From assembly GCA_002269645.1 (NCBI GenBank), contig NIVC01000363.1, forward strand, positions 558,001 through 622,000: DNA of 64,000 nucleotides, in the 5' to 3' direction. Of this stretch, positions 34,938-64,000 are shown piece after piece; position 1 is the first letter of the stretch; each line of letters begins with the position of its first letter. The translations under genes and the position numbers were made by a program. The stretch is from Macrostomum lignano (lineage: Eukaryota). The notes beneath the pieces are model-generated. The model was not told where the DNA came from. It searched no databases and saw only the letters and a list, made by a program, of their open reading frames with translations.

Positions 34938-35384
34938 AGAATTATAATTGGATGCTATGATTACTTCTGAATAATTATTAATGAAAAAATAGCAAACAGC
35001 GAATGACTAATACATACTTGTAAAAGACTGTTATACTCAGCTGTCTTTCTCAATTAAACAAATGACGACAAAAAGTAAAACAAAAAATAAACAGCAAAAA
35101 ACTGACAGCTCCCGTTTTGTTTCATTTTGCCTATACTATATAAAAAAGGCGGGCGAATCTCTCAACAGTCTACATAATGATTTCTAGCAATGCACAATTC
35201 TTGGTAAAAGCCGATGGCAAACAGGTATCCAACCCTAATGAGTTGCCGAGCTGAACCGCTAATGAGCAAAGGTGCCTGTGTAAGGTGCCTTGGGTGCATG
35301 CTAAGAGTTGCTAGGTTTACGCTTGAACTTGTGTTGCGTGTGTGGTCAGAATAATCAGTGCTTTGTCATTGTGCGATTCTTCAT

Positions 35385-35907
35385 CTGAGGCAGTGGCCCA
35401 GCAACTGGGGATCTGGGAGGCTGGCTCAGAAACTGGGGATCTGGGAGGCTGGCTCAGCAACTGGGGATCTGGGAGGCTGGCTCAGCAACTGAGGATCTGG
35501 GAGGCTGGCTCAGCAACTGAGGATCTGGGAGGCTGGCCTAGAAGGCCCAGAAACTGAGGATCTGAGAGGCTGGCCCAGCAACTGAGGATCTGGGAGGCTA
35601 GCCTAGCAAATGAGGATTTGGGAGGCTGGCCCAGCAACTGAGGATCTGGGAGGCTAGCCTAGCAAATCAGGATTTGGGAGGCTGGCCCAGCAACTGAGGA
35701 TCTGGGAGGCTAGCCTAGCAAATCAGGATTTGGGAGGCTGGCCTAGTAACTGAGGATTTGGGAGGCTGGCCCAGCAACTGAGGATCTGGGGGGCTGGCCC
35801 AGCAACTGAGGATCTGGGAGGCTGGCCCAGCAACTGAGGATCTGGGAGGCTGGCCCAGCAACTGAGGATCTGGGAGGCTGGCCCAGCAACTGAGGATCTG
35901 GGAGGCT
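35385..35907 (-). repeat. 28-bp minisatellite, copy 2 of the dispersed family (inverted)
   Basis: CTGGCCCAGCAACTGAGGATCTGGGAGG is the reverse complement of the unit at 20592. Confidence 0.95.
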
Positions 35908-35988
35908 AATTATTAAGGGTTAATACAAGAACAAAAGCTGTTTAAAAACTCGTAGCACTGCAAAACAGTCTAAATGTCATGCCAGCCC

Positions 35989-38900
35989 TCAAACCCAGCA
36001 GACGCAGAGTGCCTGCAGGAAGCCGGCAGCAGCCGCAGCCAACATCGGAGGCCGCAATTCCAGTTTAGCACAGCCGCAGTTGCCGCTAACAACGGGCCGG
36101 CCGTCCAGCTCCCAGGGCGAGCGCCAACACTGCGACGGTCCCAAGAGCTGCGGCGGCGGTAGCTGCCCAGAACCGCAGACGTGGATGCTCAATCGATACC
36201 ATTGATTTGGCAGCAGCACCAGAGCCCTGGGAAAGGTCACCTCAGTGAGGCTGACAGCCTGTCTAACCGTCTGACTGCATTCTAGCGATGCTTCATTGGG
36301 TTCGAATCTGCTATTAAACAGGCAGTGCTCAACATCTTCCACTGAGGTCACTTCAGCCATTATGGACATGTCTGAGCCGCTAGGATTCTGCTGCTGTGCT
36401 TGAACTTGTCTCAATCGGCTACTCGACGACTCGGATTTAGGCGGCTGTCGGAACAGATTAAAGCCGGTTAATAGCAATCGGCGATTAGTTCGCATCTCGA
36501 TGCTGCCGAATATGGCGAACTGCTGATCAGCTGCGATAGGGGGGATTTAAACAAAAGATCAACATTGGTGTGATGGAAAATGTTCTGGCTTTCTGTCTCC
36601 CACTGTTACATTAGCTTTACTACCACTCACCCTTCATACCCTCTCATCCCTCACAGTCTCACTCTCGGTATACCACATTCACTGAATCTTTCACTTTCAG
36701 TCTTTCACTCTCAAGGTCTCACAATCTCACACTCTACACTGTCACTTACAGTTTCAAACTCTCAAAGTGTCACTCTCTTACTCTTACAGTGTCACTCTCT
36801 CACTCTCACAGTGTCACTCTCACACTCTCGCAGTGTCACTCTCTCACTCTCACAGTGTCACTATCTCACCCTCACAGTGTCACTTTCTCACCCTCAGTGT
36901 CACTCTCTTACTCTCACAGTGTCACTCTCTCACTCTCGCAGTGTCACTCTCTCAATCTCACTCTCACAGTGTCACTCTCTCACTCTCGCAGTGTCACTCA
37001 CTCAATCTCACTCTCAGTGTCACTCTCTCACTCTCACAGTGTCACTCTCTCACTCTCGCAGTGTCACTCACTCAATCTCACTCTCAGTGTCACTCTCTCA
37101 GTCTCAAATTTTCGGAGTTTCACTCCATTTTCAACCACTCTTTCACTCTCTCCTTTTACCCCCTCACTACCACACAGTCTCACCCTGAGCTACAATGGGC
37201 CAATTACCTAAGCTCAGCAGACCGGATGCTGACACAAACGTGGACGCTGAAGACGATTCGTCTGTCACTGACGGCGGCAGGGCCATGGGCAACCTGGCCG
37301 ACACCTGGGAGGGTGCAGCGGCAGCGCGTACAGCGGCGGCGGCCGCGGCCAAATCACACAGAACCAGCTGTTCGGGTTCGCCAGGAAGGCTTGGGCACCG
37401 CGGCTGAGCGTTGAATTCAACGACGGTGTCTCGGTCTGAAGGTGGGAGAGATGGTAAATTGAGCTGCCACTATACATCAAATATGCCATTAGAGATCAAT
37501 ACACTAGCATTAAAAGTGCCATTTGAGAACAAGAAACTGGCATTCAAGTGCCATTTGAGAACAAAAGACTGGCAATCAAGTGCCATTAGACATCGATGCA
37601 TTGGCATCAAAAGTGCCACTGGAGATCAATACACTGGCATCAAAAGTGCCACTAGAGATCAATGCACTGGCATTTAAGTGCCACTAGAGATCAATACACT
37701 GGCATTTAAGTGCCACTAGAGATCAATGCACTGGCATTTAAGTGCCACTACAGATCAATACACTGGCATTTAAGTGCCACTAGAGATCAATGCACTGGCA
37801 CCCAGAGTGCCGCTAGAGATCAAGATAAATATTCAAGGCCACACTCTTACCTAGATTATCCCTGTCCTGTCCTGTCAGAATTCTGACCAATTGTCCATCA
37901 GTCAATAGCCCGGTAGGCGCCACTAGACTGCCAATCTGGCGTCGCGACATTCTTGAAAATCTAACGCATCGTAGCAACGGTGCATAATCGGTTAAATCCC
38001 CGACAGTCCCCAATGATGACAATGAACCAGACGGTTTATCCTCTTCATCAGCATCAGCACTATTACGAGACTTTGCCCAGCATAAAATCCAATCAAATAT
38101 TTCCACCTCGTCGCATGGCAGACCATCCTGGGACAGAACGCAGGCAATCAAATCTTGAGAATACGTGTTTCCATGGCAACCGAGCAGATCCGAACTGATT
38201 CGTTCCCATTGGTGACAAATTAAACGGAGACATGGTTGCACAACTGAAGGCACCTGGACAGTGAAATATTTATTGATTGATAAATGCTAAGTGAACCAAT
38301 TCGTTCCTATTTAGGATTTAAATAGAATACTCTGTTTATAATCCAGAGGGTTCTTCCTAATTTTAGAATCTGAAGTGATTTTCACTCACTATTTTAAAAT
38401 AATAACAAATGGTAATTCCATACTTCAGGATCTGAAAGGTGGTGCATCCCTGTCTCAGGATCTGAAAGGTGGTGCATCCCTGTCTCAGGATCTGAAAGGT
38501 GGTGCATCCCTGTCTCAGGATCTGAAAGGTGGTGCATCCCTGTCTCAGGATCTGAAGGTGGTGCATCCCTGTCTCAGGATCTGAAGGTGGTGCATCCCTG
38601 TCTCAGGATCTGAAGGTGGTGCATCCCTGTCTCAGGATCTGAAAGGTGGTGCATCCCTGTCTCAGGATCTGAAAAGTGGTGCATCCCTGTCTCAGGATCT
38701 GAAAGGTGGTGCATCCCTGTCTCAGGATCTGAAAGGTGGTGCATCCCTGTCTCAGGATCTGAAAAGTGGTGCATCCCTGTCTCAGGATCTGAAAGGTGGT
38801 GCATCCCTGTCTCAGGATCTGAAAGGTGGTGCATCCCTGTTTCAGGATCTGAAGGTGGTGCATCCCTGTCTCAGGATCTGAAGGTGGTGCATCCCTGTCT

Positions 38901-39945
38901 CAGGATCTGAAGGTGCTGCTTCTCTGTCTCAGGATCTGAAAGGTGGTGCATCCCTGTCTCAGGATCTGAAAAGTGGTGCATCCCTGTCTCAGGATCTGAA
39001 AGGTGGTGCATCCCTGTCTCAGGATCTGAAAGGTGGTGCATCCCTGTCTCAGGATCTGAAAAGTGGTGCATCCCTGTCTCAGGATCTGAAAGGTGGTGCA
39101 TCCCTGTCTCAGGATCTGAAAAGTGGTGCATCCCTGTCTCAGGATCTGAAAGGTGGTGCATCCCTGTCTCAGGATCTGAAAGGTGGTGCATCCCTGTCTC
39201 AGGATCTGAAAAGTGGTGCATCCCTGTCTCAGGATCTGAAAGGTGGTGCATCCCTGTCTCAGGATCTGAAAGGTGGTGCATCCCTGTTTTATTTTGGGAT
39301 CAAAATTTGGTGCTGCCAGGTTTTAGAATTTAAAGATGGTGCTCCGCTGTTTCAGGACCTGACGTAATTTTTCACTGCACTATTTCGCACCTGTAGAAAC
39401 ATACAATGCTCCAGCACTGTAAGCGCATTATCCACAGTCAAATGCTGACGCAAGTACTCGCAGCAAGCGTTAGCAAGACCATCAACAAGATATTTCTTAG
39501 CGGCGTACAGCGTTTGAAATACGTTGCTATCGGTAACACCTTCTGTACAGTCTGTATAAGCAAATATTAATAGATTCTCAAAGGCGCTGGACTCAATATC
39601 AGATAGCTCGTGGATAGTCTCATTCATCAGTTTGCTATTGTGATTAGAATCCGGACTCTGCAGCTGCCGACTCAATGGGCTATCGAACATAGCTCGGAAC
39701 ACTGGACTGACAGATGCTAGTACAACACGGTGAGCATTGAATCGGATTTTAGCATCGCCAATTAGAAAGGCTACATCGGAGAATTCGCCACTATCTAGAC
39801 TGAGCTTCAAGCGCTGGCACAGTGTGAGCGGAATCTGCGGTGCAACCTGCTCACTAGCTTGATTGTTTGAGTCTGCAGACTGCAGTTGAACGGTTGGTGG
39901 TCCCAGTGTCTGAGCTAAACAGAATGAGTCCTCCAATTCTTGCAT
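35989..39945 (-). CDS. BTB/POZ-BACK-PHR domain protein (BTBD1/2/3/6-like Cullin-3 adaptor)
   Basis: Phase-consistent exons (minus) 39945-39391, 38253-37851, 37435-37208, 36530-35989. BTB motifs FSDVAFLIG, FNAHRVVLASVSPVFRAMF, TLYAAKKYLV; BACK DEVEIFDWILCWAK and LLRCVRFSRMS; PHR-like RTNRRLLLTGFNLF and LVLLPNQWYRLSI. Confidence 0.9.
36730..37100. repeat. ~22-bp minisatellite (CACTCTCTCACTCTCACAGTGT)n
   Basis: Tandem units in the BTB intron. Confidence 0.9.
37540..37818. repeat. ~31-bp minisatellite (AAGTGCCACTAGAGATCAATRCACTGGCATT)n
   Basis: Tandem units in the BTB intron. Confidence 0.9.
38424..39286. repeat. 30-bp minisatellite (TCAGGATCTGAAAGGTGGTGCATCCCTGTC)n
   Basis: About 29 units. 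Confidence 0.95.
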
Positions 39946-46129: not shown

Positions 46130-47262
46130 TGAAGTACAGGTGTCTTGCCTGTGGTTGTCTAGAGGCCTTCAATAGGAACGCTGCCCCGGTGAAGTACAGT
46201 TGCTTGAGCTCCTCTGGGAAGTCTCCGGGTTGATCTAGTAGCGTTGGTAGTGCTGCCACCAGCTTCGCAGAGTCGCAGCCTTCGGTGAGGTGCTGAGCTC
46301 GTAGAAGCAAATAACTAAGACGAGAGAAAGAGACTCGCACTTCGTGCAGATTTAGCAGTTCTCGCGCAGAGGTGCCCACCGTCAGCAGTCCCTGCCGGGC
46401 TGGTGCGGGGTGAGAGCGAAAGTGCTAGCTTCGGGCGATCTGAGCTGGCCTGCTAGCTGATAGCAGGAACAATCAGAGCCAGAGGCAGTCACGCGCAAAG
46501 TCGGGAGTCTTGGAGTTCAACTTAAGCGTCAACTTGGCACACAACTTAGAGTTCGCTAGAAACGAAACGGAAGGAACGCTAGGAAAGCTTGGAAAGCTAG
46601 GAACGCGAGGAACGGTAGGAACGCTGAAAACGCAGAAACGAGAGGCTGAAACGGAAGGGCCGGTTAACGGAAGGAAAGAAAGGCTTGTCTGAGCCAAGCC
46701 AGGAGAGGGGCTGCATTTATAGGGAGGATCGATTGCACCATAGCACGAAAGGCCCCCGCTGAGAGTCATAAGTGACTCTGTTGCTATTTTTAGCAACAAA
46801 CAAGCGGGCCCTGCCTCAGAGGAGGCAAGGGGGGGTCCGGGCGCACGTGATCTCCCCATAAACACGAGCCCAGCGTACAATGATGAAATCATTGCACTTT
46901 GGACTAAAGAAGGAAGAGGGCCTTGTCATGTGACTGACTCACATGACAAGGGGAAAAGGCCCACAAGTGAAGGCACTCGTGACCGTGGGACCGGAAAACA
47001 GGAAGGCACTCCAAATTTGGAGATGCCTGACAGAGAACGAAACAGAGGCAGGCCAGACCAAGCTGTCTGGGCACTGCAAAAAGGGAAAGCGAGACAAAAG
47101 GGGCAAACGAGGACAAACAGACAGACAGACAAACGGGCAGAGGACAGGCCAGGGACAGGCGGGAGGGACAGGCAACTGCCCAGCGGCAGACAGAAACCTG
47201 GGGAGAAGGCGAGGGCAACAGCTGACTAGTGCGGCGCCTAACTAAACTAGCGACTCACTACA
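46130..47262 (-). repeat. 3' LTR
   Basis: No differences from 55182-56314 seen by eye; the ORF translations inside are identical. Minus-strand TATAAA at 46721-46716; internal 9-10-bp GGAACGCTA-type repeats at about 46574-46632. Confidence 0.97.
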
Positions 47263-47270
47263 CTCTCCCC
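47263..47270 (-). other. Polypurine tract GGGGAGAG
   Basis: Directly abuts the TG start of the 3' LTR. Confidence 0.85.
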
Positions 47271-47664
47271 GTTCAAATAAAGAGGCGGAGTGAAGCGGCG
47301 CGCGCTTTATTTAAAACAAAGTAAACGTGAATTTACTGACAAAAGAAAACACACAAAATTTCAAATGCGCTCGTGAAATTGCGCGACTGGCCAGGTCGTA
47401 AAGATAGTGGCCTGATACCGCGGGGGCGCCAACCCGCTAATAGCCTGCGCCTAACTATTCCTCGTGCTCCAGCCCGCAAAATTAGTGCTCGAATTTGGTG
47501 TGGGGGCGCCGGCCCACCCTAGAAATGGCGCCTAAATATTGCGCGGGCGATACCTGAATACACAAGCCAACCGGCTTAAAATTCCTGCATAAGGGCGCTT
47601 AACTAGCGCGGCAAACGGGGCAACTTCATTGTCAACAGGGCGTACATCAGCGTACGGCCGCCAA

Positions 47665-50600
47665 TCAGTCAAAATAGCACAGACGCGGAGTCATCAAGAG
47701 CATCGGCAGGTCTTCTTCCCCGCCGCCCATGAATCGGGCAACGCGGACGGCCGCCAGGTGGAGAGCGTACGGCCGGTTCGGCCGCTCCAGGTCGGGGCCG
47801 GCCAGGCCGACCGCCTCCGCGAATAACCGGCTCCTCTCCTCGGCCGTGGTTTGACGGAGCTCCGCCCAGATCGGGCCACCGAGGTCAACGATTTCTCCGC
47901 CTTGCCGAGCCGCTCTGACGAGTACAGCGCTTGTCAGGTTGGCGCCGGCAGCGATGACGGTAGCTCGGTATTCCGGTATTGGCGACTCCGTTTGAGTGCC
48001 GGTATCGAGCGTTTCCGCCGGACGTTCGGGCGATGGTGGCGGGGCCCTGGGCAGGGTGCGGCGCAGCGACGCGGCCAGGTCGGTCCAAACAGCTGAGGAG
48101 CATGCGGCCGCTCCCTGAGTGTCATCGGTCCAAGACATCGGAGACGGGGCCGCGTCGGGATGCCTGGCGTCGTCGAGATCCCCTCCGCGTTCATCTGTTC
48201 CGCCGGGCCTGCCATGGTGCTCCGACCCGACTCGCTCACGGGCCGCCGGCCGAGCCCCGTCGATGTCTGGAAGGGAATTGCGGACTTGGAGGCGGATGTC
48301 CGCCAAGCCCCGCATCACCTGCTGTTCCAGCTGCACGTAAGCCAAAGCGGCCGCGATCCGGTCGACCATGAGTGTCCGCGCAGTCGCGTCTGGCGATGGC
48401 GAGTCGCGCGTGAGGTCGATGACTTCGGGCGAGTGTCGTTGACCCCGAGCGGGGTGTTGAGCTGCATGGCTCTCCAGAACGGGCGAAGGGCTTCGCCTGG
48501 GTGCCGATGTTCGGAGTGGCCTCCCATTCCGCCTCTGGGGCTCGGGAGACGGCGTGCGACGGTGAGGGCGCCGATCAACCTGGCGCGTCGGCCTCGCCGA
48601 GCCGTTGCCTTCAGCCCTGAGTCTCCGGTTAATTGTCTCCAGCGGGCGCCGCGGGATCCCCATGGTCTCTGGCGAGACCGGGGTACCAGGTCGGCGCCGG
48701 CTACGGCTAGGCCGCCCTTGCTCCGCATCGGACGAGGAGCTTGAGCTCACGTGGAGCGGACGCTTGTGCATTTCTGCGCTGCAAGGTTTTAATTTGTGCA
48801 CACGCATGCGGGCGGTGCGACTAACGTACGTTTTGGCCCTAGGATCGCTAATCAGAAGCCTCTCCGGCGGCCTCCGATCCCTAACTGGCCTACCTACCAC
48901 TACTGGTATGGGAGACGCTTCCACCTGAGTGGTGCAAGGAGGTGGCGCAGGAGACTGCACCGCCGAAAAAGGTTCGGGAAGGGGGGACGCATGGACAGGT
49001 GAAAAAGAAGCAGCAGGTGCAGACGCATTCAAACCAGGCACACCATCATGGCGATCACCATACGGCAGTGGCTCACGCCGAAATGCACTTGCCTGGTTCG
49101 CTGGTGTCGTGACCGGTCCACCTCCTGGCTGCACATCCGGGATCGCCAACGGCCGGAAGCGCCACCGGAAGGCCGGCCATGCGTCATCATCATCATCGTC
49201 CTCGTCCGGATCGTCCTCCGGAATCGGTGTCAGAGTCGCGGGTCCTGCACCGTCCGGGGCATCAGTCAACCTGCAGCGCTTCTTGGCCTGGTCGACTTCT
49301 GGATCCGAAGTCAGCTGGTAGTCGGCATCAGGGACGAGTAGCAGATTCCGGCGATGGACTACTAGCTCGTCGCGCCTGGCCCGCGGGTTTGGCACTCTAC
49401 GGCGAATCTTGTAGACGACCTCGCCCTTGGGTTCGACTACCTCGTACAGCGCTTTGCGAGGTCGATGGAACTTCGCCGCTTCATCCGGTTCGAGCACCGG
49501 GTTGTTGAGGAAAACCAGGTCACCAGGTTGGAGCTTCTTGGCAGCGGGCAGGTTCGAATAGTGCTCGTCGCGCAGTTGCTGATGCAGATGCAGGCGTTCT
49601 TTGGCTAGCTCAGTCGCTTCGTCCAAACGGCGCTGGAAGTCCTTGACATAGTCAGGCAGATTGGCATACTCCGGCAGCTTCTTGATCGCGTTGTCGATTG
49701 GTAGTCGAAAGTCTCGACCAAACACCAGGTAGTGAGGCGTGAAACCTGTCACCGGGTGTACACTAGAGCGGAGCGCCATCAAGCAGGCTGGGAGGAAGGT
49801 GTCCCAGTCGTTATGGTTGCGCTCGAGGAGGCAGGTGAGGACACTCTTCAGCTGCTTGTTGAGGTTCTCGACTTGCCCATTAGAAGCTGGGTTGTACGGT
49901 GTTGTCGTCGTATGCCGGATGCCAAACAGGTCGCAGAACTTCTTGAAAGCTGAGCCAGTGAAATTGGTTCCTTGATCAGTGTGTATCCAGCATGGTACAC
50001 CAAAGTCAGGGATCAAGCGCTCCTGCAGGATCTTGATGACCGTCTTGGCTTTCTGGTTCCTCATCGGATAGGCGAACGGATACTTCGACGTCGCGTCGCA
50101 TAGCGTCAAGATGTAGCGGTTCCCGCTCTTGCTCTTCTGGGCGATAGGGCCTACTACATCGCAATGTACTCTTCCCAGAACTTCGCACACAGGGAAGCTC
50201 TGTACAGGTACTCGGTCTCGTCTTCGGGATTTACTTTCAAGACAGGCGCGGCACTTACTGATAAAGTTCTCGGTGACACGGGCTAATCCGGGCCTCCAGA
50301 ATCGTTCACGTAGCCGCTTCAACGTCTTCGTCTGGCCGAGGTGTCCACACAGTGGCGAACTGTGGAGCTCCTGGAGCACCTGGGCATCAAGAGACTCAGG
50401 CAGGACAACCTTCGGGGACTGCTGGCCATCAGTCAGATCGATCATCAGCAGGCCGTTGTCCTCTAGCAGATTATCATAATATCCGAGCAGATTCCGCTGC
50501 TCCTTCGTCAGTCGCAACCGGGCGTCGAACTCAGGCTTCGGGCTTTGTTCTCGACCAAGTTGAGCACGTAGCTGATTGCTCGGTCGGCGCGCTGCGCGTC

Positions 50601-53600
50601 GACAAACTGTTGCCGCGTCATCGGCATCCTCATAAAATCAGTGAGCACGGCGCGGCATGGCTGAGGGTTCCGGATTTCCTCAGTCTCCGCTTCTGTGGCT
50701 CGCAGTTGATCACGCGACTCCGTCTTGTCGGCGTCAGGATTAGGTCGCTCCGAGGGACTTTGTCTCACAACGTCGGCGTACGATCGCTGATCTCGTTTCG
50801 AAGTTCTCATCGTCGCTCTCTTGACAGGAATTTCCGCAGCTGGAGCAGTGCACTTGCCTCCACTGCACAGCCCAGGCGACTCTTGGCTGTAGGGCGAGAC
50901 GCAACACGTGAAGCACGCCTCGTCGCAGGCAGCCGTAGCCGTCGGCTCGATCATCGTCGTCATTGGGTGAGTCTTCTCCAGCACTGGGCGGTGTCGCAAA
51001 GGGGGACTCGACTTTCCGCACAGGCGATGAGCAGCTGTCTGTCGGCTCGGGGGACAGAGCGTTGACCTTGCAGCCGTCGCGAGAGTCTGGCCTCTGTCAA
51101 CACGGCGAGAACTCTCAGCGCAAAACTCCGGGGAGTTGAACTTACATTGCTGGTCTGGATTCGCGTTGTGGGCTGTCATCAGAAGGGCTGCTTGTTCAGT
51201 GGCCTCTGAGTCGTGGTCCATGGGCGTCTCCAGATTCCGAGACCCGCAGTCTTGGACATCATCAAGGAGGTCTACGTCAGCAGTGGCCTCCGAGGGTTTG
51301 TCCGGGCGAATCTCCAAGTAACGGCAGTCGGCGTGGGCGTCGCTGCGGAGGGCTGAGGTGTCAGTGGCCTCCGGGTTGGTGTCCAAACCGGTCTCCAGGC
51401 GTTGACTGCAGCGATGGTCGTCGTGCTGAAGGACTGCTGGCGCAGTGGCCTCCAGGTCTTCGGCCAGGGCAGTTTCGGCCTCCTTGTTGCGAGTGTGGAC
51501 CTTCTTCGGGGCTGCTCTTGCAGTGGCCTCACGGTGGTGTCCAATTCCGGCTCCAGCTGGTGTCATCACGTCGGGCTGCAGAACGGGTGCTCAGCAGTCG
51601 GCCGTGCTCGAAGTCAACCGGTGGTGTCTCCGGGCGTCTTGACAGGGCGTCAGCGTTGGCGTGGTCCTTGCCTTTGCGATGGTGAAGCTGGAAGCGGAAC
51701 TCGCTTAATCGCTCAATCCAACGGCCCAAGATGCCTGTGACCTGCGTCTGGTTCAGCAGCCACAGCAAGGCCCGATGGTCAGAACGAACTTCAAACTTCT
51801 TGCCGATTAAATAATGACGGAAATGTCGCATCGCGTCCACGATTGCAAGCAGCTCTTTCTTCGTGACCGTGTAGCGCTTCTCAGGATCACGAAGCTTCCG
51901 GCTAAAGAATGCAATTGGGCGCTCGACGCCGTCGGATTGCCGTTGTCCAAGACAAGCGCCTATGCGAATGTCTGAGGCATCCGTGTCTAGGACAAACTTC
52001 ACATTAGGATCTGAGTTAAACTCAGGCAGAGCGAGAACTTCAGTCGAACACAACTTCTTCTTCAACGTGTCGAACGCTACCTGGTGCTCATCAGTCCAAT
52101 GCTGCCGCAGGCTGCCGATGTCCTTTCGAGTCAGGGCATGTAGCGGCGCAGCAAATCCAGCGTAGCCGTTGACAAACTTGTGGTAGTAATTGGCGAGGCC
52201 TAGGAATTGTCTCAGTTGAGTAACGGACTGTGGCACGGGCCAATCACGGATCTGCGCAATCTTGTCCTCACAGGTCTTCAGGCCGTCGGGAGTCACGACG
52301 TGGCCTAGATAATGCAGCTCCTTGAGGAACAAATGGCACTTCTTCGGCTTGACCTTGAGGTTGGCTGCGATAATCCGCTGGAGTACAGTCCGCAGGTTGT
52401 CCAGCTGCTCCTCGAAGGTCACAGAGTGCACCACGATGTCATCCATGTAGCCAAGCGCAGTCTTTGGCGTCAGGCCGTCCAGGAGCTTATTGATGCAACG
52501 CTGAAAGCTGCCTGGACTATCGTGGAGACCCATCGGTAGAACATTGAAACAGAATTGTCCGCGGTCAATCACAGAGAACGCCGTCAGGTGCTGATCGCAG
52601 TCGCGCAGCGGGATCTGCCAGAATCCTTGAGCGAGATCCAAGCTAGAGTACCACTGGGCACCACGCAGCTTCGCGAAGGTCTCCTGAATGTGCGGCAGCG
52701 GGTACGGGTGGTACACACACTTGTCGTTGAGAGCTCTGAAGTCATGCACCAGCCTGATGTTGCCGTCCTTCTTGGGCACTATCAGCATTGGCGAGTTGTA
52801 GCTAGAATAAGCCGGGCGAATGATGTGCTTCGCCAGCATCTCGTCTAGCAGGGCGTCTAGCTTGTCCTTCAGATGAGGCGGGATCCTGCGCGGTGGTAGC
52901 GCAACTGGTGTCCGATCCTTCAGGATGATCTCGTGGGTCACCAAGTGTGTCAGGCCAGCGTCTAGCAGATGCTTCGAGAAGGCTGCTTGACACTCAACTA
53001 GTAGATCTCGCACTCTCTGTCGTTGATCTTCGGACAGCTCGCTGTTGATCTCGACTTCCTCTAGCCAAGCTGTGCTGGACTCTTCAGGGCTCCTTGGCAA
53101 ATGTCGCACTTCAGGTTCCGGCGTCTCTTCCAGGTACATCAGGTCGGCAGTTCTAAGTGGTGTCGCAACACCAACGCGGATGCCCGACTGCAGGAACACC
53201 TCACAGTCAGCAGTGTTGACGACCTCGATGTAGCCTCGACCTTCAGGCATAGTCATCAGAGCTGGAGCTGCTTCCAGAGTGTTGCAGCTGGGGTGCAGTC
53301 TCGACTTCACCAGCTCGACGATTGATGGCGATCCTCGGTTCTCGGGGTGGCCGACATCCAACTGGACGGCCAACAGCGCTGAACTTCTCGGCGGCAGAGT
53401 GCACTTCTCGGAGGTGTACACCCGGCATGATTGAAGCTCACGGCGCGAATAGCGAACGGGAATGCACGCGCCATTGTTGAACTTTAACATTCCTTGAGCA
53501 AAGTCCAAGTTCTGGCAGTGTTCACGCATGAAATTAATACCAAGCAAATTTTCACAATCGGTGACCGTGACCAGGAATTCGGTGTCCGCGACGACATCAC

Positions 53601-54026
53601 CGAACTCCACCGGGATGATCACCTTACACGCAAGGGGTAGCTGCGTACCGTCGTACATGGTCACGCAATCCGGGATAGCATGCGATATGATACAACGAGG
53701 CATCCGACGTCTAACATTGGCCCAGGTCGACGCTCCAAGAAAGTTTTTCCGACTGCCGCTGTCTAGTAGGAAAGGGACTTCTCGGCCCGCCAATCGGCCG
53801 GTGACGTACGGATCAGCCTCACGCGCATGGATTTTTTATCATCGGAGGTGTCCACGAAACCTCCGCACTCAGCCTCACTTACTGATGAGCGACTGTCGGA
53901 CTGGGCATTGGCGTCTGCGCAGCCGACATCCTCTTCTTCTGGTGAGCGTTCGGAGTCTGCCAAGTAGCCGGGGCTTGGGCTCTGCGGAGGGCGTTGCCGT
54001 GGGCGCTCTCCGTCTCGCCGTTTCCC
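47665..54026 (-). CDS. pol: pol polyprotein: protease, RT, RNase H, repeat spacer, integrase, ~370-aa C-terminal extension; interrupted by frameshifts in this assembly
   Basis: PR FLLDSGS; RT YPLPHIQE, LDLAQGFWQI, YMDDIVV; RH LDTDASD, KELLAIV, DHRAL, NADALSR; IN H-H-C-C zinc finger, CDVVGP, TDQGTNF, GQVENLN. Frame breaks near 53835, 51600-51530 and 50545. Confidence 0.95.
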
Positions 54027-55047
54027 TGGTTCTGGCGTAACGGGCACTGTGCATTGCGATGACCAGGCTGACCACAGCCATAGCAGATCATGGCTTTCGC
54101 CGGCGGACTCGTTTCTGCTGCTGGTCACGCTGCACCAGGTTGTCTAGCAGTCGCTGCTGTTTCTCTAGCAGATCAGTCAGAGCTAGGAGAGCTTGAGCGG
54201 TGGCGTCGGGCGTCGGGTCACCGTCGCGCTCCCCGTTCAGCATGCGAACCGGGGGTTGAGCAGAGCGCTGCGCCAGTTCCTTGGCGCCTTCCAGACGATG
54301 GAGTTCTCGAATAGCGGCCAGCAGATTGTTCGGGCGGACCCAATAGAGCCGCTCGCGCAGATCTGGTGTCGTCCTGATGCCAGCTAGGAACTGATCAGCC
54401 AGCTCCCGCTCTCGATCCTCAGGGTGCATTCGAGGGTACGCTCGCTCTCCCAAGGTGCGCAGGGCATCAGCGTACTCTTCTGCTGACTCGTTCTTGCCTT
54501 GCTGACGGCGCCTCAGCAGCTCTCGATATTCATCCGCGCCACCGTGGCGGGCGAATCTCTCGATCAGTCGCTGCCTGACCTCCTCGTAGCCAGCATAGCG
54601 TGGGAGGTGCATACTGAGCAGAGCCGGGTAAGCGGTTGCCAGATCTAGACTCGCAACGAGGTGCTGCTTCATCTCGATCGGGTCTTCGATACGCTCCATC
54701 TCGCAGCGCTGCTCGAACGCGGCGAGCCAGACGTGGATGTCCTGGCTGGGCGTGTACTTTACAATCTTAACAGATTTGCTTACCGGCCGCTCCATCTGCT
54801 GCTGCAGAGCTGCCATCATCGTTCTCACATCCTGGGGCCTGATGTTCTGGCCGAGGTCGTCCAAACCTGGCAGAAGCTCGTCTGGCGGGTCTTCGGACAC
54901 TTCGCTTCTCGCACTTCGCCGCGGCATCTGCTGACCAAGGTCGTTGACCGCTGCTGCTGCGGCAGCCGATGCTGCTGCAGGTCTCGAACTGCTGATGTGC
55001 TGATCCAGCCGGCTGCTGCACCGGCTCTCTTCTCTCTCGTTAAACAT
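53879..55047 (-). CDS. gag: gag: capsid-like domain and CCHC zinc knuckle; one frame break at 54124-54091
   Basis: ORF 55047-54088 contains QQGKNESAEEYADALRTLGERAYP. CYGCGQPGHRNAQC (Cx2Cx4Hx4C) lies in the -1 frame and ends at TAA 53881-53879. Confidence 0.9.
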
Positions 55048-55156
55048 TTCAAATTAGTAGAATAGCCGAATTCTTACTCGAAAGAGCGGTTGTCTTGGGT
55101 GTAGTAGTAGTCGAATCTTGACTTGTCGGATCCCAGATAGTCGTGTCGTTGACTCG

Positions 55157-55180
55157 TCGAATCCCACCGCTGAGTCACCA
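55157..55180 (-). other. Primer-binding site, tRNA-Leu-like
   Basis: TGGTGA[CT]CAGCGGTGGGATTCGA, 1 nt from the LTR end; complementary to a tRNA 3' end of type TCGAATCCCACCGCTG..CCA. Confidence 0.85.
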
Positions 55181-55181
55181 G

Positions 55182-56314
55182 TGAAGTACAGGTGTCTTGC
55201 CTGTGGTTGTCTAGAGGCCTTCAATAGGAACGCTGCCCCGGTGAAGTACAGTTGCTTGAGCTCCTCTGGGAAGTCTCCGGGTTGATCTAGTAGCGTTGGT
55301 AGTGCTGCCACCAGCTTCGCAGAGTCGCAGCCTTCGGTGAGGTGCTGAGCTCGTAGAAGCAAATAACTAAGACGAGAGAAAGAGACTCGCACTTCGTGCA
55401 GATTTAGCAGTTCTCGCGCAGAGGTGCCCACCGTCAGCAGTCCCTGCCGGGCTGGTGCGGGGTGAGAGCGAAAGTGCTAGCTTCGGGCGATCTGAGCTGG
55501 CCTGCTAGCTGATAGCAGGAACAATCAGAGCCAGAGGCAGTCACGCGCAAAGTCGGGAGTCTTGGAGTTCAACTTAAGCGTCAACTTGGCACACAACTTA
55601 GAGTTCGCTAGAAACGAAACGGAAGGAACGCTAGGAAAGCTTGGAAAGCTAGGAACGCGAGGAACGGTAGGAACGCTGAAAACGCAGAAACGAGAGGCTG
55701 AAACGGAAGGGCCGGTTAACGGAAGGAAAGAAAGGCTTGTCTGAGCCAAGCCAGGAGAGGGGCTGCATTTATAGGGAGGATCGATTGCACCATAGCACGA
55801 AAGGCCCCCGCTGAGAGTCATAAGTGACTCTGTTGCTATTTTTAGCAACAAACAAGCGGGCCCTGCCTCAGAGGAGGCAAGGGGGGGTCCGGGCGCACGT
55901 GATCTCCCCATAAACACGAGCCCAGCGTACAATGATGAAATCATTGCACTTTGGACTAAAGAAGGAAGAGGGCCTTGTCATGTGACTGACTCACATGACA
56001 AGGGGAAAAGGCCCACAAGTGAAGGCACTCGTGACCGTGGGACCGGAAAACAGGAAGGCACTCCAAATTTGGAGATGCCTGACAGAGAACGAAACAGAGG
56101 CAGGCCAGACCAAGCTGTCTGGGCACTGCAAAAAGGGAAAGCGAGACAAAAGGGGCAAACGAGGACAAACAGACAGACAGACAAACGGGCAGAGGACAGG
56201 CCAGGGACAGGCGGGAGGGACAGGCAACTGCCCAGCGGCAGACAGAAACCTGGGGAGAAGGCGAGGGCAACAGCTGACTAGTGCGGCGCCTAACTAAACT
56301 AGCGACTCACTACA
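55182..56314 (-). repeat. 5' LTR
   Basis: Duplicate of 46130-47262. Confidence 0.97.
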
Positions 56315-56618
56315 TATAGAAATCCAATAAATAATATGTTGAGCTAATGGTATGTTTTTTTAATTTCTGGTTTCTGGCTTAACTTTGAGACAAATCCAAG
56401 AAGCAATTAGGAGTTAATTATTCTATGCCATTCCAAAAGGCACTTATTGCAGTGTGGACTTAGACTAATTTAAAGAGAGAATGTCTAGTCCTGTGCTACT
56501 ACGATCTAGTGCTCCCTGGAGTGATGATGCTAAATATGTAAGCCTATTTTAACCTTTTTAAAAACCTATGTAACCAGAAAATATATTGTTTATTCCCATT
56601 TTTCAATGCAACATTCAG

Positions 56619-57900: not shown

Positions 57901-58482
57901 AATAAGTCAAGTGTTGGAGCTTTCTTGGCATCGTTTCTTAGATAGACCAATGTTTACTTTTAATTGCGTATATCGTTTCTGCTGTTCACGCGTGTGTATG
58001 AATTTCATGAACCCAACTAGCCTGACTACCTCCGGCTGACTTGCATCTATCTGCGCTGCACAGTGTATATAGGTTAATTGAACCGGTCTTGAATTGCGAA
58101 TATCATTTTTTCTCTCTCCAGAGAAGCTTTTAAAGATTTCTCTAACGGCGACTGTTGGTAAGAATTATAATTTCATATTGATTCATTGTTTCCTATTTTA
58201 CTATGTTGTCAGTGTTAGAATATCTTTATTCTTTCTTTATTCTTGTAATCCCTGTTTTATTTAATTGAACATTAAGATACCTTAGTTCCTTATTTTATTA
58301 TGTTTTTGTAGCTAAGGATAGTAGGTGCAGTCTGCAACCATAATTGATAATCACTCATAACGAAGTAGCTTTTATTCGGATATTATTATCTGTGTACTCG
58401 TAGCGCTTGTTGTTTTAAAAACTTTGTCGCTTTTGTTAATCGGTCAATTTGATTTTTTATCGGTCTCTCAGTGGGCACCGCT

Positions 58483-59460
58483 ACACCCTATCCCACTACC
58501 CCCTACCCACTACCCCCTATCTCTCTACCCCTATCCCACTACCCCCTATCCCACTTCCCCCTACCCGCTACCCCCCCTATCCAACTACCCCTAGACTCAC
58601 TACCCCTATCCCGCTAACCCCTACCCACTACCCCCTATCTCTCTACCCATATCCCGCTACCCCCTATCCAACTACCCCCTATCCAACTACCCCTAGACTC
58701 ACTACCCCTATCCGCTACCCCTACCCACTACCCCCTATCTCTCTACCCCTATCCCACTACCCCCTATCCCACTTCCCCCTACCCGCTACCCCCTATCCAA
58801 CTACCCCTAGACTCACTACCCCTATCCCGCTACCCCCTACCCACTACCCCCTATCTCACTACCCCTAGACTCACTACCCCTATCCCGCTACCCCCTACCC
58901 ACTACCCCCTATCTCACTACCCCTATCCCGCTACCCCCTAAACCACTACCCCCTATCTCACTACCCCTATCCCGCTACCCCCTAAACCACTACCCCCTAT
59001 CTCACTACCCCTATCCCGCTACCCCCTACCCACTACCCCCTATCTCACTACCCCTAGACTCACTACCCCTATCCCGCTACCCCTACCCACTACCCCTATC
59101 TCTCTACCCCTATCCCACTTCCCCCTACCCGCTACCCCCCTATCCAACTACCCCTAGACTCACTACCCCTATCCCGCTACCCCCTACCCACTACCCCCTA
59201 TCTCTCTACCCCTATCCCACTTCCCCCTACCCGCTACCCCCCTATCCAACTACCCCTAGACTCACTACCCCTATCCCGCTACCCCCTACCCACTACCCCC
59301 TATCTCACTACCCCTAGACTCACTACCCCCTAAACCACTACCCCCTATCTCACTACCCCTAGTCTCACTACCCCTACCCGTTACCCCCTACCCGCTACCC
59401 CCAATCTCACTAACCTCTATCCCACTACCCCCTCTCCGCCACCCCTTCTCCGCTGACACC
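58483..59460. repeat. C-rich compound minisatellite (CTACCCC(C)TATCCC...)
   Basis: Tandem CTACCC-based units. Confidence 0.95.
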
Positions 59461-59935
59461 TACCTTATCTGTCCTATTAATCTAACCGTCGTATTTACGC
59501 GTAATAAATTGGCCATATTAGTAAATGCCTAGTTACCGGTTACTCATTAGTGTCGTCATTTCTCAGAACCAGTGTAATTTTCTCCTTTAGCAAAGCTCAC
59601 ATTCCTTTCTCTTTTGAAGCGTGTACGAAACACGTGTCTGAAAATGCAGGATCGGCCAAAGTCCTTTATGGGCATTTTTTCTTCGCATTCCCCCCTCTCT
59701 CTCTCTCTCAACATCTGGCCGCTGTGCAGTTGCCAGCTTGGATTGGTGCAGTCGGTCTATTGGCTGTGCACGGGCAAGCGCGCTGCTGAAGGGTCGGCTT
59801 GAGGGGAAACGAACAACTCTCCACACTTTGTTAGGCTTTCTTGGGTGGGGGGTCTGGATGCTTGGGGATGAGGATTGGGAGAGGGGAGAGGCTTCGAACT
59901 GGCTTAGCAATAAAAATATTGGGGGACAAGCAGCC

Positions 59936-61350
59936 ATGCGGCAAGGAAGTAAAGACAGACTGTATCGTGCACAGCTTCAGTCATTGAACGAATACGATAG
60001 AGGCCATCAGAAAACGGCTGCCAAGAAGTGAATTGGTCAGGATTACCTTGGCTGTACCTGCTAATCCCAAGCTATTTCCGTAATTCCTTGATTTTTTCAG
60101 TTACGTATATACAGTATAAGGTACCCGCTTACCTATTGCCAATTAATTTCAGAGCATCATTGACGCCTGCCGGTCACCGAGAGTTGAAACTCACAGGTAT
60201 GGCTGATTGGGGATGGAGATTTCGGGATGCCAGATGGGGATTTCGGGATGCCAGATGGGGATTTCGGGATTTCAGATGCGGATTTCGGTATTCCAGATGG
60301 GGATTTCGGGATTCCAGATGGGGATTTCGGGATTCCAGATGGGGATTTTGGGATTCCAGATAGGGATGTCGGGATTCCAGATAGGGATTTCGGGATCGGG
60401 ATTCCAGATAAGGATTTCGGGATTCCAGATAAGGATTTCGGGATTCCAGATAGGGATGTCGGGATTCCAGATAGGGATTTCGGGATTTCAGATAAGGATG
60501 TCGGGATTCCAGATAGGGATTTCGGGATTTCAGATGGGGATTTTGGGATTCCAGATGAGGATTTTCGGGATTAAATATGTGAATATGAATATTTCGAAAG
60601 ATTTGAAGATTTTGGAATTCGAATAGGGGATTTCGAGTTTTATATTCCAGCCAGGCAAACACCTCGCCGCATCCCCGTCGATTTTCAGTCGCGAACGGCT
60701 GCGCAGCTCGCTGCCTTCGGAGCTCGAAGGACTGCACGTCGCCGGATCTGAATCGGAAGACGAAAACAAAGTGAACGAACTTGTTGACGCCGCCGGTAGT
60801 CAGCTGAGATCCACTCTGGTTTTTATGGAGCCCTCTGACTCTGAGTCTGCTTGCGCGGCGCCGGCAAACACTAGCCGATTGCTTCGGTCTTCCTCTCCTG
60901 CGTCTTCGGCCGCTTCGTCTGATTCGTCTTCTTCCTCCGGAGCTTCATCTCTGGTTGCTAACGCGTCCTCCACCTTGGCCATCGCCCCCAACGACAAAGG
61001 CGACGATGAAGCTGAATTAAACAATCGATCGGAGGACTCGACTCAGACTGAAGAGGAAGTCACCGAAGAGTTCGTTAAAGTAGACGGTGTACTTTATAAG
61101 CGTCGAATATTGAGAAGACGGCGTCAGAAAGTTGTGCGAACTCGAACTGTGGTGTCGTCGGCTGAACCGCCCGTGGTGACCGTGGCTGCGACATCTGCTG
61201 CTCCTGACCATCAGGAGTCACCGCCGCCCCCTCCACTGCCTCCCAGACTTAACAAATCAGCTAATAACACTGATGAAGACGGTACTGATGCTGGATCAGG
61301 TGTTATGCTAAGACGGCCTGAGACTGCGGCCAATGACCAGATTCGATTGG
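59936..61350 (+). CDS. Unidentified Ser/Glu-rich protein, probably continuing beyond the window
   Basis: GCCATG at 59936; phase-consistent exons 59936-60027, 60153-60196, 60655-61350 (MRQGSKDRLYRAQLQSL...ELKLTGKHLAASPSIF...EEVTEEFVKVDGVLYKRRILRRRRQK), donor GTGAGT at 61351. It may instead belong to the gene at 56619. Confidence 0.6.
60205..60570. repeat. 21-bp minisatellite (GGGATTTCGGGATTCCAGATR)n
   Basis: Intronic tandem units. Confidence 0.95.
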
Positions 61351-61424
61351 GTGAGTTGTGTCTGTAAGCTTGATTGTTGAGCACTTCATTGGGTAATTTC
61401 TCGTCGTCCCATTCACTCTACCCT

Positions 61425-62700
61425 CACTCAAATCGCCCCTGAACCCTTACTGAAAATCGCCCCTGAACCTTCATTAAGAATCGCCCATGAAGCCTCACTA
61501 AGAATCGCATCTGAAGCCTCACTAAGAATCGCATCTGAAGCCTCACTAAGAATCGCATCTGAACCCTCACTAACAATCGCCCATGAAGCCTCACTAAGAA
61601 TCGCATCTGAACCCTCACTAAGAATCGCCCATGAAGCCTCACTAAAAATCGCATCTGAACCCTCACTAACAATCGCCCCTGACGCCTCACTGAGAATCGC
61701 CCCTGAACCCTCACTGAGAATCTCCCCCGAAGCCTCACTAAGAATCGCCCCTGAAGCCTCACTAAAAATCGCCCCCAAGCCCTCACTGAGAATTGCCCCT
61801 GAACCCTCACTGAGAATCTCTCCCGAAGCCTCACTAAGAATCGCCCATGAAGCCTCACTAAGAATCGCCCATGAAGCCTCACTAAAAATCGCATCTGAAC
61901 CCTCACTAACAATCGCCCCTGACGCCTCACTGAGAATCGCATCTGAACCCTCACTAAGAATCGCCCATGAAGCCTCACTAAAAATCGCATCTGAACCCTC
62001 ACTAACAATCGCCCCTGACGCCTCACTGAGAATCGCCCCTGAACCCTCACTGAGAATCTCCCCCGAAGCCTCACTAGGAATCGCCCCTGAAGCCTCACTA
62101 AAAATCGCCCCCAAGCCCTCACTGAGAATTGCCCCTGAACCCTCACTGAGAATCTCTCCCGAAGCCTCACTAAGAATCGCCCATGAAGCCTCACTAAGAA
62201 TCGCCCATGAAGCCTCACTAAGAATCGCATCTGATCCCTCACTAACAATCGCCCCTGACGCCTCACTGAGAATCGCATCTGAAGCCTCACTAAGAATCGC
62301 CCCTGACGCCTCACTGAGAATCGCCCCTGAACCCTCACTAACAATCGCCCCGAAGCCTCACTAAGAATCGCCCCTGAACCCTCACTGAGAATCTCCTCCG
62401 AAGCCTCACTAAGAATCGCCCCTGACGCCTCACTGAGAATCGCCCCTGAACCCTCACTAACAATCGCCCCCAAGCCCTCACTAAGAATCGCCCCTGAACC
62501 CTCACTAAGAATCGCCCCTGACGCCTCACTGAGAATCGCCCCTGAACCCTCACTAAGAATTGCCCCGAAGCCTCACTAAGAATCGCCCCTGAACCCTCAC
62601 TAAGAATCGCCCCTGAACCCTCACTAAGAATCGCCCCTGAACCCTCACTGAGAATCGCCCCTGAACCCTCACTGAGAATCTCCCCCGAAGCCTCAATAAG
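61425..62700. repeat. 24-bp minisatellite (CCTCACTAAGAATCGCCCCTGAAS)n
   Basis: About 53 units; source of ORFs 61424-62553. Confidence 0.95.
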
Positions 62701-63214
62701 AATTGCAGAATCTCATTTTATAGAGTGGCTCACCAATGGAAAATAAGTGCCGGAAACGCATTAAAATAAATAAAGGCTTCAGTTTTATAATTGAATTATA
62801 TGATACCAAGAGCCCAAGATATAGATAGACCTGTGACACAAAACTATAAAATTATTAATAAACCAATGCGCTTCGGAGTTAAAAGTTATGTGAAAATATT
62901 GCCACTGACCTGTTTATATCTGACCGCATTCAGTCATGCCGCATTTCCTACTGCCATGGCTGATTCTGCCAGTTACCATATGCTATCTGTATATCTGTCT
63001 CCATCCATTACCCTTTACTAAAGTAGCTCTACGAAATGAATCTGGTTTCTCGTAATTTGCGCTGTCAGTTCTGAGTTTAGTTTATGCCTGTTTACGTAAT
63101 TGCGCCTGATTCCGACCTTTGGTCTGAGAAATTTTCTCAATTACGCTAATAGATTTTCCGTTGCTAAATAGTCTAAGTAATGTAATATCTTGTCTGATAC
63201 TTTAAAGTATGGTT

Positions 63215-64000
63215 TTGTGTCTATTTGATATTTTCCGTTTCTCTGCATTTGATCTAGGGTGAGATTTCCGTATCTCTGTGTTGTGTCTAGGGTGAGATTT
63301 CTTTTTCTCTGCTATAGGTCTAGGGTGAGATTTCAGTGTCTGCGTTGAATCTATGGTGAGATTTCCGTGTCCATTTATTGGATCTAGGATGGGATTTCCG
63401 TGTCTATTAATTGGGTCTAGGGTGAGATTTCCGTGTCCATCCATTGGATCTAGGATGGGATTTCCGTGTCTATTCATTAGATCTAGGTGAGATTTCCGTG
63501 TCTCTGCATTTGATCTAGGGTGAGATTTCCGTGTCTCTGCATTTGATCTAGGGTGAGATTTCCGTGTCTCTGCAATTAATCTAGGGTCAGATTTCCGTAT
63601 CTCTGTGTTGGGTCTAGGGTGAGATTTCCTTGTCTCTGCTATAGGTCTAGGGTGAGATTTCAGTGTGTCTGCGTTGGATCTAGGGTGAGATTTCCGTGTC
63701 CATCCATTGGATCTAGGATGGAATTTCCGTGTCTATTCATTAGATCTAGGGTGAGATTTCCGTGTCTCTGCATTTGATCTAGGGTGAGATTTCCGTGTCT
63801 CTGCATTTGATCTAGGGTGAGATTTCCGTGTCCATCCATTGGATCTAGGATGGGATTTCCGTGTCTATTCATTAGATCTAGGGTGAGATTTCCGTGTCTC
63901 TGCATTTGATCTAGGGTGAGATTTCCGTGTCTCTGCATTTGATCTAGGGTGAGATTTCCGTGTCCATCCATTGGATCTAGGATGGGATTTCCGTGTCTAT
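63215..64000. repeat. ~33-bp minisatellite (CTAGGGTGAGATTTCCGTGTCTCTGCATTTGAT)n
   Basis: Tandem units running to the end of the window. Confidence 0.95.

Follow-up and report, generated by a model that had tools for sequence, protein, structure and literature searches.

A retrotransposon with a long open frame behind its integrase

The window (the whole stretch of 64,000 nucleotides of Macrostomum lignano DNA analysed here) contains a Ty3/Gypsy LTR retrotransposon, all features of which lie on the minus strand. It exhibits the hallmarks of this superfamily, i.e. LTRs with TG..CA ends, a primer site, a polypurine tract and a target duplication, the latter being the 4-bp TATA that flanks the element. 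The two LTRs of 1133 bp each (5' LTR at 55182..56314, TG...CA, with TATAAA at 55773; 3' LTR at 46130..47262) are 100% identical to each other and the insertion is therefore very recent; a pattern search for heat-shock elements in the LTR found none. Directly after the 5' LTR there is a candidate primer-binding-site-like stretch (55161..55181), followed by an ORF in the gag position (54088..55053; 321 aa from stop to stop), which is 84–100% identical in sister elements and has no significant Pfam match. Protease, reverse transcriptase (RT), RNase H and integrase are present in this order, as seen from Pfam matches and from the single Pol ORFs of sister copies. The protease–RT–RNase H part (51529..53835; RVT_1, 1.7e-32; RT_RNaseH, 3.5e-36) and the integrase (49345..50400; H2C2 at 50400-50224, 1.4e-15; catalytic core at 50175-49888, 7.7e-16; a weak p58-type C-terminal domain at 49446-49345, 0.016) are linked by a spacer of about 340 aa without Pfam match (50508..51590). 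In this copy Pol is split over three frames; in the copies L061, L062 and L077 it is a single ORF of 2139–2215 aa, the C-terminal end of which is the extension considered in the following.

A single stop-to-stop frame of 990 aa (50637-47665) runs through the integrase to the end of this extension. A preliminary description of the locus had noted that the frame stays open past the motif DRRPPERL, and this is indeed the case: downstream of the motif (48879-48856) another 396 codons remain open, and from an ATG at 48771 onwards they encode 368 aa (47665..48771), an ORF with its own start that is also in frame with Pol and is termed ORF3 here. DRRPPERL had also been taken for the usual end of an integrase; the last Pfam integrase domain, however, stops earlier, at about aa 431 (49345), with about 560 aa beyond. 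ORF3 is succeeded by a 3' UTR (47263..47664, with AATAAA at 47311) that includes the polypurine tract (47274-47263). The GC content of this 3' region is 68%.

Sibling copies show no scatter of stops or frameshifts in ORF3. Among 13 other near-identical genomic matches, six carry an unbroken ORF3, six have 1-bp deletions in short runs and the remaining one (L014) lacks the 5' part of ORF3 through an exact splice-type join. Since short-read contigs across ORF3 are gapless (four runs), the 1-bp deletions are probably long-read or assembly errors. For comparisons over larger distances, 54 intact loci (some of them overlapping) were grouped into 14 clusters at 80% identity, and among these 14 lineages ORF3 is only 25–50% identical.

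Conserved motifs and a helical domain in the ORF3 protein

The motifs listed in the preliminary description were all found at the positions given there. The protein begins with a basic arm rich in Arg, Ser and Pro (48442..48771), predicted to be disordered (pLDDT mostly 39–53) and including RRTPSP (48561) and RRSPSP (48498). It continues with a SUMO-interacting-type motif (SIM), VIDLT followed by DSP (48409..48423), a predicted amphipathic helix (aa 127–166; 48274..48393), an LC8/DYNLL-type motif, DTGTQTE (47986..48006, with TGTQTE at 48003-47986), in a disordered stretch, and a C-terminal domain of about 100 aa that is predicted to be all-helical (47668..47988). AlphaFold on ORF3 gave disorder save for the helices 127–166 and 222–239 and this C-terminal domain, for which a model from a 34-sequence family alignment reached a pLDDT of 87.7 and a pTM of 0.82; its near-invariant residues are A26, P33, P39, W41, R45, R52, G89 and P95.

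The core of the SUMO-interacting consensus is [VI]-[IV]-D-L-T. A regular expression for the SIM-type motif finds it in ten of the 14 lineages, with 0.011 expected by shuffling; once YIDLT is included, [IV]DLT occurs in 11/14 and is missing or degenerate in the other three. The LC8-type word xQT[DESAN], a TQT-type anchor within a disordered region, is present in 13/14 lineages, the 14th having CQAD, and LC8 genes are present in the host. This is conservation rather than independent recurrence, because the lineages share ancestry, yet for proteins so strongly diverged it goes far beyond chance. In shuffles of this single ORF3, by comparison, p was 0.0017 for a VIDLT-type word, 0.046 for a bare TQT and 0.66 for loose SIM patterns. 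Judged at the level of sequence, the motifs in one copy alone are weak evidence, and it is their conservation across lineages that carries them. The first 120 aa have a net charge of +9 to +17 and each ORF3 has 7–13 [ST]P sites, both in all 14 lineages, and part of the predicted helix, VxRGLxxIRxQV, recurs in seven lineages and is doubled in three.

That the extension is neither a chromodomain nor an Env protein, as already suspected, was borne out. There was no chromodomain Pfam match in 18 members of the family, and the models contain helices only. The N-terminus is basic, ORF3 of this copy has two Cys and a peak 19-residue hydropathy of 1.41, and the corresponding peaks in 14 ORF3 proteins (0.79–1.62) coincide with the first helix of the folded domain or lie close to it, i.e. 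neither a signal peptide nor a transmembrane anchor is apparent. No match to a chromodomain or Env family, including viral fusion glycoproteins, was obtained in Pfam, PDB sequences, BFVD or PDB folds, although for the fusion glycoproteins such absence does not exclude homology.

More generally, the ORF3 protein (P0001) had no Pfam match at E<=1, no match among 7997 candidates when used alone as a query, no usable match in the ESM Atlas and a best E of 0.14 against PDB sequences. A profile of the C-terminal domain matched one of 7995 candidates and three of 1.84 billion representatives, all from M. lignano. Neither the full model nor the domain had a match in BFVD at E<=0.001. Foldseek with the predicted domain, a check proposed beforehand, yielded nothing significant against the PDB (best E 2.3), and a VIA comparison with 48161 chains gave a best Z of 5.8 (rmsd 3.6, 87 aligned). 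Several cullin chains appeared with Z of 4.1–5.7, which is under the level that helical bundles require, and a likeness to cullins was rejected. Such blank fold searches show neither a new fold nor the exclusion of a family.

A spliced leader is joined directly upstream of ORF3

Just upstream of ORF3 there is a splice acceptor (A1; 48772..48800), the AG of which (48780-48779) is located 8 nt before ATG 48771. In runs X2 and X4, which come from two studies, contigs depart from the element exactly at this AG (48779) and continue into foreign letters, and these loose ends (16 nt in X2, 11 nt in X4) agree with the 3' end of the spliced leader published for M. lignano (PMC8629364). Leader joins were thus seen in at least two of six runs, with one contig each, among the matches listed; that the runs represent RNA is our guess, and, consisting of contigs only, they yield no expression level. 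The join is not present in the genome, where a 15-nt join pattern occurs at four places; all of these lie outside the element, and at no place does the leader precede the match. Unspliced contigs that span A1 were found in runs X1 and X10. Among the contig joints listed, there was none between the 5' leader region on the LTR side and A1, as would correspond to env-style cis-splicing.

A leader-RNA gene was looked for as well. Among the leader-matching genomic loci, eight of 100 were viewed and in none is the match followed by a GT donor, and Rfam recognized no leader family in the three such loci scanned. Because no leader-RNA gene was found among the loci viewed, the identity of the leader rests on the published sequence as given in PMC8629364. 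According to the same source, about 30% of M. lignano genes are trans-spliced. In run X13 this leader was moreover encountered at 56368, an unrelated position beyond the element. Given this and the high proportion of trans-spliced genes, some of the leader joins may be incidental.

The immediate surroundings of the acceptor have been maintained. In front of the ATG, the word (T)TTCAG CGCAG AAATG persists in lineages that share only 25–50% identity in their extensions, and it occurs 83 times in the genome as opposed to four times for a reversed control. Moreover, public M. lignano gene models of relatives describe stand-alone proteins of 366–418 aa: P0003 and P0004 start at the ATG, P0005 one residue later and P0006 two residues upstream of it, precisely at the acceptor ('AEMH'). 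The leader itself ends in an AUG that is out of frame to ORF3 and in a weak context (U at -3), whereas ATG 48771 has G at -3, which suggests that ORF3 would be reached by leaky scanning. A conserved peptide starting from the leader's AUG was rejected, as this frame has a variable length of 9–85 codons.

Overall, ORF3 is very probably a separate gene that receives a spliced leader. The term integrase extension used in the preliminary description thus holds insofar as this part of the frame is in frame with Pol and under selection; that it is an extension only does not agree with its own acceptor and AUG, the leader and the stand-alone gene models.

A conserved GC donor and a possible role of the fusion

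Further upstream, a GC-type splice donor, CAG|GCAAGT, is conserved (49085..49095; exon end at 49093). Across eight sequences, 18 of 20 four-fold sites around it are invariant, whereas for the integrase core the figure is 63 of 147 (p=6e-5). Together with A1 it delimits a GC-AG intron (or outron) of 314 nt (48779..49092), which contains DRRPPERL. A second acceptor (A2; 48267..48280), specific to this subfamily, is located inside ORF3. In the genomic copy L013 the donor is joined exactly to A1, in L014 donor 49093 is joined to the second acceptor (48267), and L071 and L074, which belong to another lineage, show an exact donor–acceptor join that represents one event, the flank being common to both. 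We read these copies as reinserted spliced RNAs. A joint between 49093 and 48266 in run X13 was discounted as RNA evidence, as it is also present in L014, and depth peaks near the donor were discounted as collapsed contigs of many families. In 51 distinct contexts the GC is found in 51 and the AG in 50, although the search patterns themselves select for these letters. Excision of the 314 nt shifts the frame, and Pol of L013 stops 23 residues past it.

At a shared acceptor, a cis-donor has been described to outcompete the leader (PMC4558846), and the weak GC donor may thus set the balance between cis-splicing and leader addition. An internal promoter at ORF3 is equally possible.

One question is whether the functional form is in fact the integrase fusion, with the SIM, the LC8 motif and the helical domain tethering or carrying the integration complex to chosen chromatin, in the manner of chromodomains, and the leader join being a by-product. 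This explanation comes close to the accessory module envisaged in the preliminary description, for which transport, oligomerization or nuclear targeting are conceivable roles. In its favour, no stop interrupts the frame between integrase and ATG in 13 of the 14 lineages, the spacing between donor and acceptor preserves the frame in 36 of the 51 contexts, and the uninterrupted Pol ORFs of L061, L062 and L077 include the extension. However, acceptor and ATG are conserved exactly at the point where divergence between lineages sets in, and the public gene models begin at the acceptor or ATG. Also, the lineage L130–L132 keeps an ORF3 frame of 396–397 aa despite a deletion between donor and acceptor, as a result of which ORF3 and Pol of L130 and L131 are in different frames, and a sister Pol with 59% integrase identity terminates shortly past the tail motif. 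As the only functional form, the fusion therefore appears improbable; that it also matters is argued by the frame being open in 13 of 14 lineages.

ORF3 behaves as an old, apparently exchanged cassette

Divergence between lineages starts at ATG 48771: identity is 86–100% in the four preceding 150-nt bins and mostly 50–85% thereafter. ORF3 plus 3' UTR are about 63–73% identical between elements with integrases and LTRs that are often 94–100% identical, examples for integrase/ORF3+UTR/U3 being 0.99/0.63/0.98, 0.98/0.64/1.00 and 0.98/0.65/1.00 (18 of 20 loci were usable). Between lineages, dS is 0.8–2.8 in ORF3 and as low as 0.03–0.06 in the integrase; for L078 versus L077, it is 1.6 and 0.04, respectively. 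A comparison of dN/dS among copies, which had been suggested as a check, gave 0–0.07 for the integrase and finite values of 0–0.72, i.e. always below 1, for ORF3 in 17 pairs of natural copies, with several dS values saturated and with the domain boundary set too early for L061, L062 and L064. Positive selection on ORF3 was rejected on these grounds. By its pattern of substitution, ORF3 is an old cassette under purifying selection and not a fast-adapting tail.

These data bear on the simplest alternative, namely that the extension is neutral read-through of a GC-rich 3' region. A GC content of 68% does make long open frames easier, but dN/dS below 1 at saturated dS, the confident fold from the family alignment and the conservation of the motifs already contradict this explanation, which is hardly conceivable any more.

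Three backbone groups mostly reappear in trees of integrase, ORF3 and U3, with different pairings within groups; L139, for instance, has L061 as its partner in the integrase tree and L062 in the ORF3 tree. On each of the three backbones, 4–7 sampled ORF3 versions were found. Apparently, ORF3 versions have been exchanged as a block between elements, as these tree comparisons suggest. Within groups ORF3 does not co-vary with the U3 of its own element; co-evolution with its own LTR was rejected and recognition of that LTR by ORF3 is therefore unlikely. Hidden tetraploidy has been reported for M. lignano (PMC12801592), but alone it cannot give such a contrast in divergence within one element.

That near-identical flanks enclose a deeply diverged cassette, with several versions on every backbone and the same domain occurring both free and fused to Pol, could also point to an incompatibility or copy-number function, in which free ORF3 would bind the domain of a same-type Pol and restrain it, such that rare types escape and many coexist. 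Ty1 p22 and phage immunity regions would be analogues. Yet SIM and LC8 motifs suggest host partners rather than self, and homotypic binding is purely hypothetical, so that we regard this explanation as quite improbable.

Does ORF3 protect the element from silencing?

We tentatively propose, lending the idea almost as much credence as doubt, that ORF3 is a third gene, with the leader joined 8 nt before its ATG, and that its product is likely a nuclear adaptor shielding the element from SUMO-dependent silencing. One locus would then give rise to three products: unspliced RNA would yield a fusion of Pol and ORF3, use of the GC donor in cis-splicing would shift the frame and produce an integrase with a short tail, and trans-splicing would generate a short mRNA with a cap; ribosomes scanning this mRNA would pass the weak out-of-frame AUG of the leader and start at ATG 48771 to make free ORF3. 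In this protein, the basic arm would serve nuclear entry and nucleic-acid binding, LC8 would dimerize two ORF3 chains, the SIM would dock on chromatin factors that carry SUMO, and the effector would be the helical domain. Old ORF3 versions might be kept by frequency-dependent selection and be exchanged as blocks by template switching. That ORF3 is a nuclear helper of its own element is somewhat more probable than not, whereas counter-silencing specifically is a possibility that falls short of probable.

The analogy is taken from Drosophila, where Piwi-guided silencing is reported to require LC8, which dimerizes Panoramix via TQT motifs (PMC7861614), as well as SUMO, which recruits SIM-bearing effectors (PMC8490990). 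Panoramix (PICTS/SFiNX) is described as largely disordered, with LC8-bound TQT motifs, in a SUMO-dependent transposon-silencing pathway (PMC7861614, PMC8490990). It is a host silencing factor of the fly and resembles ORF3 by motifs only; no homology is claimed, but it illustrates that LC8 and SUMO are plausible targets. By this analogy, a protein with SIM, LC8 motifs and long-kept alleles would fit counter-silencing best. The precedent is from the fly only, and its transfer to a flatworm is by analogy.

Alternatively, the trans-spliced mRNA could encode ORF3 as a Rev/CERV-like factor, the Arg-rich arm of which would bind unspliced element RNA and cause its export or a block of splicing. The genomic RNA does carry a conserved donor and acceptor and must skip both, a response element within the ORF3/3' UTR cassette would account for protein and UTR moving as one unit, the basic arm and the 7–13 [ST]P sites are found in all 14 lineages, and leader joins and gene models attest a subgenomic spliced mRNA. 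There is also precedent in Cer1, the 2.4-kb mRNA of which is SL1-trans-spliced (PMC3315495) and whose CERV is described as needed for genomic RNA export and as relying on proline-directed phosphorylation (PMC10309623). Against this, class-1 nuclear export signals occur in just 3/14 lineages, where 2.0 are expected, i.e. a conserved leucine-rich export signal was not found; in contrast to CERV, ORF3 shares no exons with gag and lacks a Cys finger as well as a G-like domain, and such a factor has no need of a conserved SIM. For ORF3 we consider this role somewhat unlikely, although it ranks closely behind counter-silencing.

Irrespective of function, Cer1 of C. elegans is a close parallel. As described (PMC3315495, PMC10309623), it is likewise a Ty3/Gypsy element in a spliced-leader-using animal, with splice sites to be skipped by genomic RNA and a highly divergent accessory non-Env protein with a leader-bearing subgenomic mRNA. 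CERV, however, is made from a 5-exon cis-spliced mRNA with gag-shared exons and is characterized by a Cys loop and a G-like domain, whereas ORF3 is a single-exon 3' gene in frame with the integrase, with an acceptor inside pol, SIM- and LC8-type motifs, an all-helical domain as predicted and many cassettes in one genome. Bdelloid LTR elements, too, have a family-specific non-env third ORF, which is placed downstream of pol and ahead of the 3' LTR and is described as typically relying on spliced messages for its expression (PMC5408684). Unlike the in-frame fused, trans-spliced ORF3 of M. lignano, for which the searches run here found no homologue outside this species, the bdelloid ORF3s are separate frames and encode either membrane proteins or enzymes acquired by capture, namely a GDSL esterase or a DEDDy exonuclease (PMC5408684).

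In chromoviruses, an in-frame C-terminal targeting domain follows the integrase of Ty3/Gypsy Pol, and other integrases have such domains as well. ORF3 differs in having no chromodomain match, an all-helical model and its own acceptor and ATG.

Novelty and perspectives

Non-Env third ORFs (PMC5408684) and a leader-bearing accessory mRNA (Cer1) are thus already known from these accounts. What appears to be new, in that we did not find it in open-access print, is an ORF3 in frame with the integrase that is entered by trans-splicing inside pol, its domain and the cassette pattern; nor did the open-access literature yield a retrotransposon with this combination of a subgenomic, spliced-leader trans-spliced mRNA. 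Ty3/Mdg4 families of the same host, i.e. the same superfamily, have been catalogued computationally (PMC12801592), in a main text that, as available, does not contain 'splic', 'ORF' or 'chromodomain'; four short motifs of the ORF3 element family were not found in five supplements, within the cell text available.

To our knowledge, counter-defence proteins of animal retrotransposons are scarcely known. ORF3 represents a selected orphan candidate for such a protein in a transgenic, RNAi-tractable stem-cell model and is directly testable. In its most far-reaching form, the preferred interpretation would imply that the operon machinery of the host, by trans-splicing inside pol, frees a SUMO/LC8-targeting counter-silencing protein with an undescribed helical fold, maintained as a dozen ancient swappable cassettes, which taken as a whole is unlikely. 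If true, counter-silencing cassettes on one homogenized backbone would resemble phage immunity regions. An apparent integrase tail entered by trans-splicing is a route to a subgenomic mRNA that is missed by annotation, and the same route may explain other ORF3s in the M. lignano genome. Whatever the role of the protein, saturated divergence that is boxed in by 94–100% identical flanks clearly points to cassettes that have been kept for long and exchanged; in broken form, the ORF3 cassette is also found behind two foreign pols.

The ORF3 cassette in foreign elements

At other M. lignano loci, the ORF3 cassette (ORF3 with its 3' UTR) has been relocated, as a separate ORF, behind a foreign pol. 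At three such loci (L126:6758-9140, L127, and L128 at about 4200-5250), an unrelated integrase, only 26% identical to that of the studied family and presumably Mag-like by its motifs, terminates, and about 430 nt past its stop codon begins a captured piece of the studied family that comprises the acceptor region, a broken ORF3, the 3' UTR and the polypurine tract, followed in turn by a Tc1-like transposase fragment. A second chimera of foreign pol and ORF3 cassette is found at L145:6500-9700 as well as at L059 and L060. Behind a distant Gypsy pol (about 50-59% identity in the reverse transcriptase and 40% in the integrase) come AT-rich repeats, then a decayed ORF3 and lastly an LTR that is 85% like that of locus L077.

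Splice sites and 3' end of ORF3

Direct joins of the GC-type splice donor to the acceptor ahead of ORF3 are present in a 3.4-kb two-LTR copy that lacks gag and most of pol (L071:5632-10000 and L074:5816-10000), and represent a single event because both loci share a flank. In another lineage (L130-L132), a deletion has left 120-121 nt between donor and acceptor, despite which both sites and an ORF3 of 396-397 aa have all been kept. As to the 3' end, AATAAA occurs at window position 47311, about 40 nt upstream of the polypurine tract, and also in L126, and neither AATAAA nor ATTAAA is found in the LTR at 46130-47262; the ORF3 transcript may end ahead of the LTR.

Further features of the element and its host

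The spacer that separates RNase H from integrase (window 50508-51590) is unusually long, at about 340 aa; it is 71-99% identical among sister elements and had no match in a Pfam search. Around the element, minisatellites whose repeat units measure 14-34 bp form dense arrays (window 860-7650, 18700-23200, 35300-39400 and 58400-64000). In the host genome, a dynein light chain search gave 110 matches to the LC8 family, eight of them near-canonical, a large expansion of this family.

The host's spliced leader is also joined at window position 56368, just beyond the 5' LTR, in sequencing run X13 (RNA by guess only); the window's own copy has no AG at this site. Twenty-three nucleotides of the leader occur at 100 genomic places; the eight viewed (L084-L091) have no GT donor, and some of them are arranged in tandem, with a spacing of about 7-8 or 11 kb between units.
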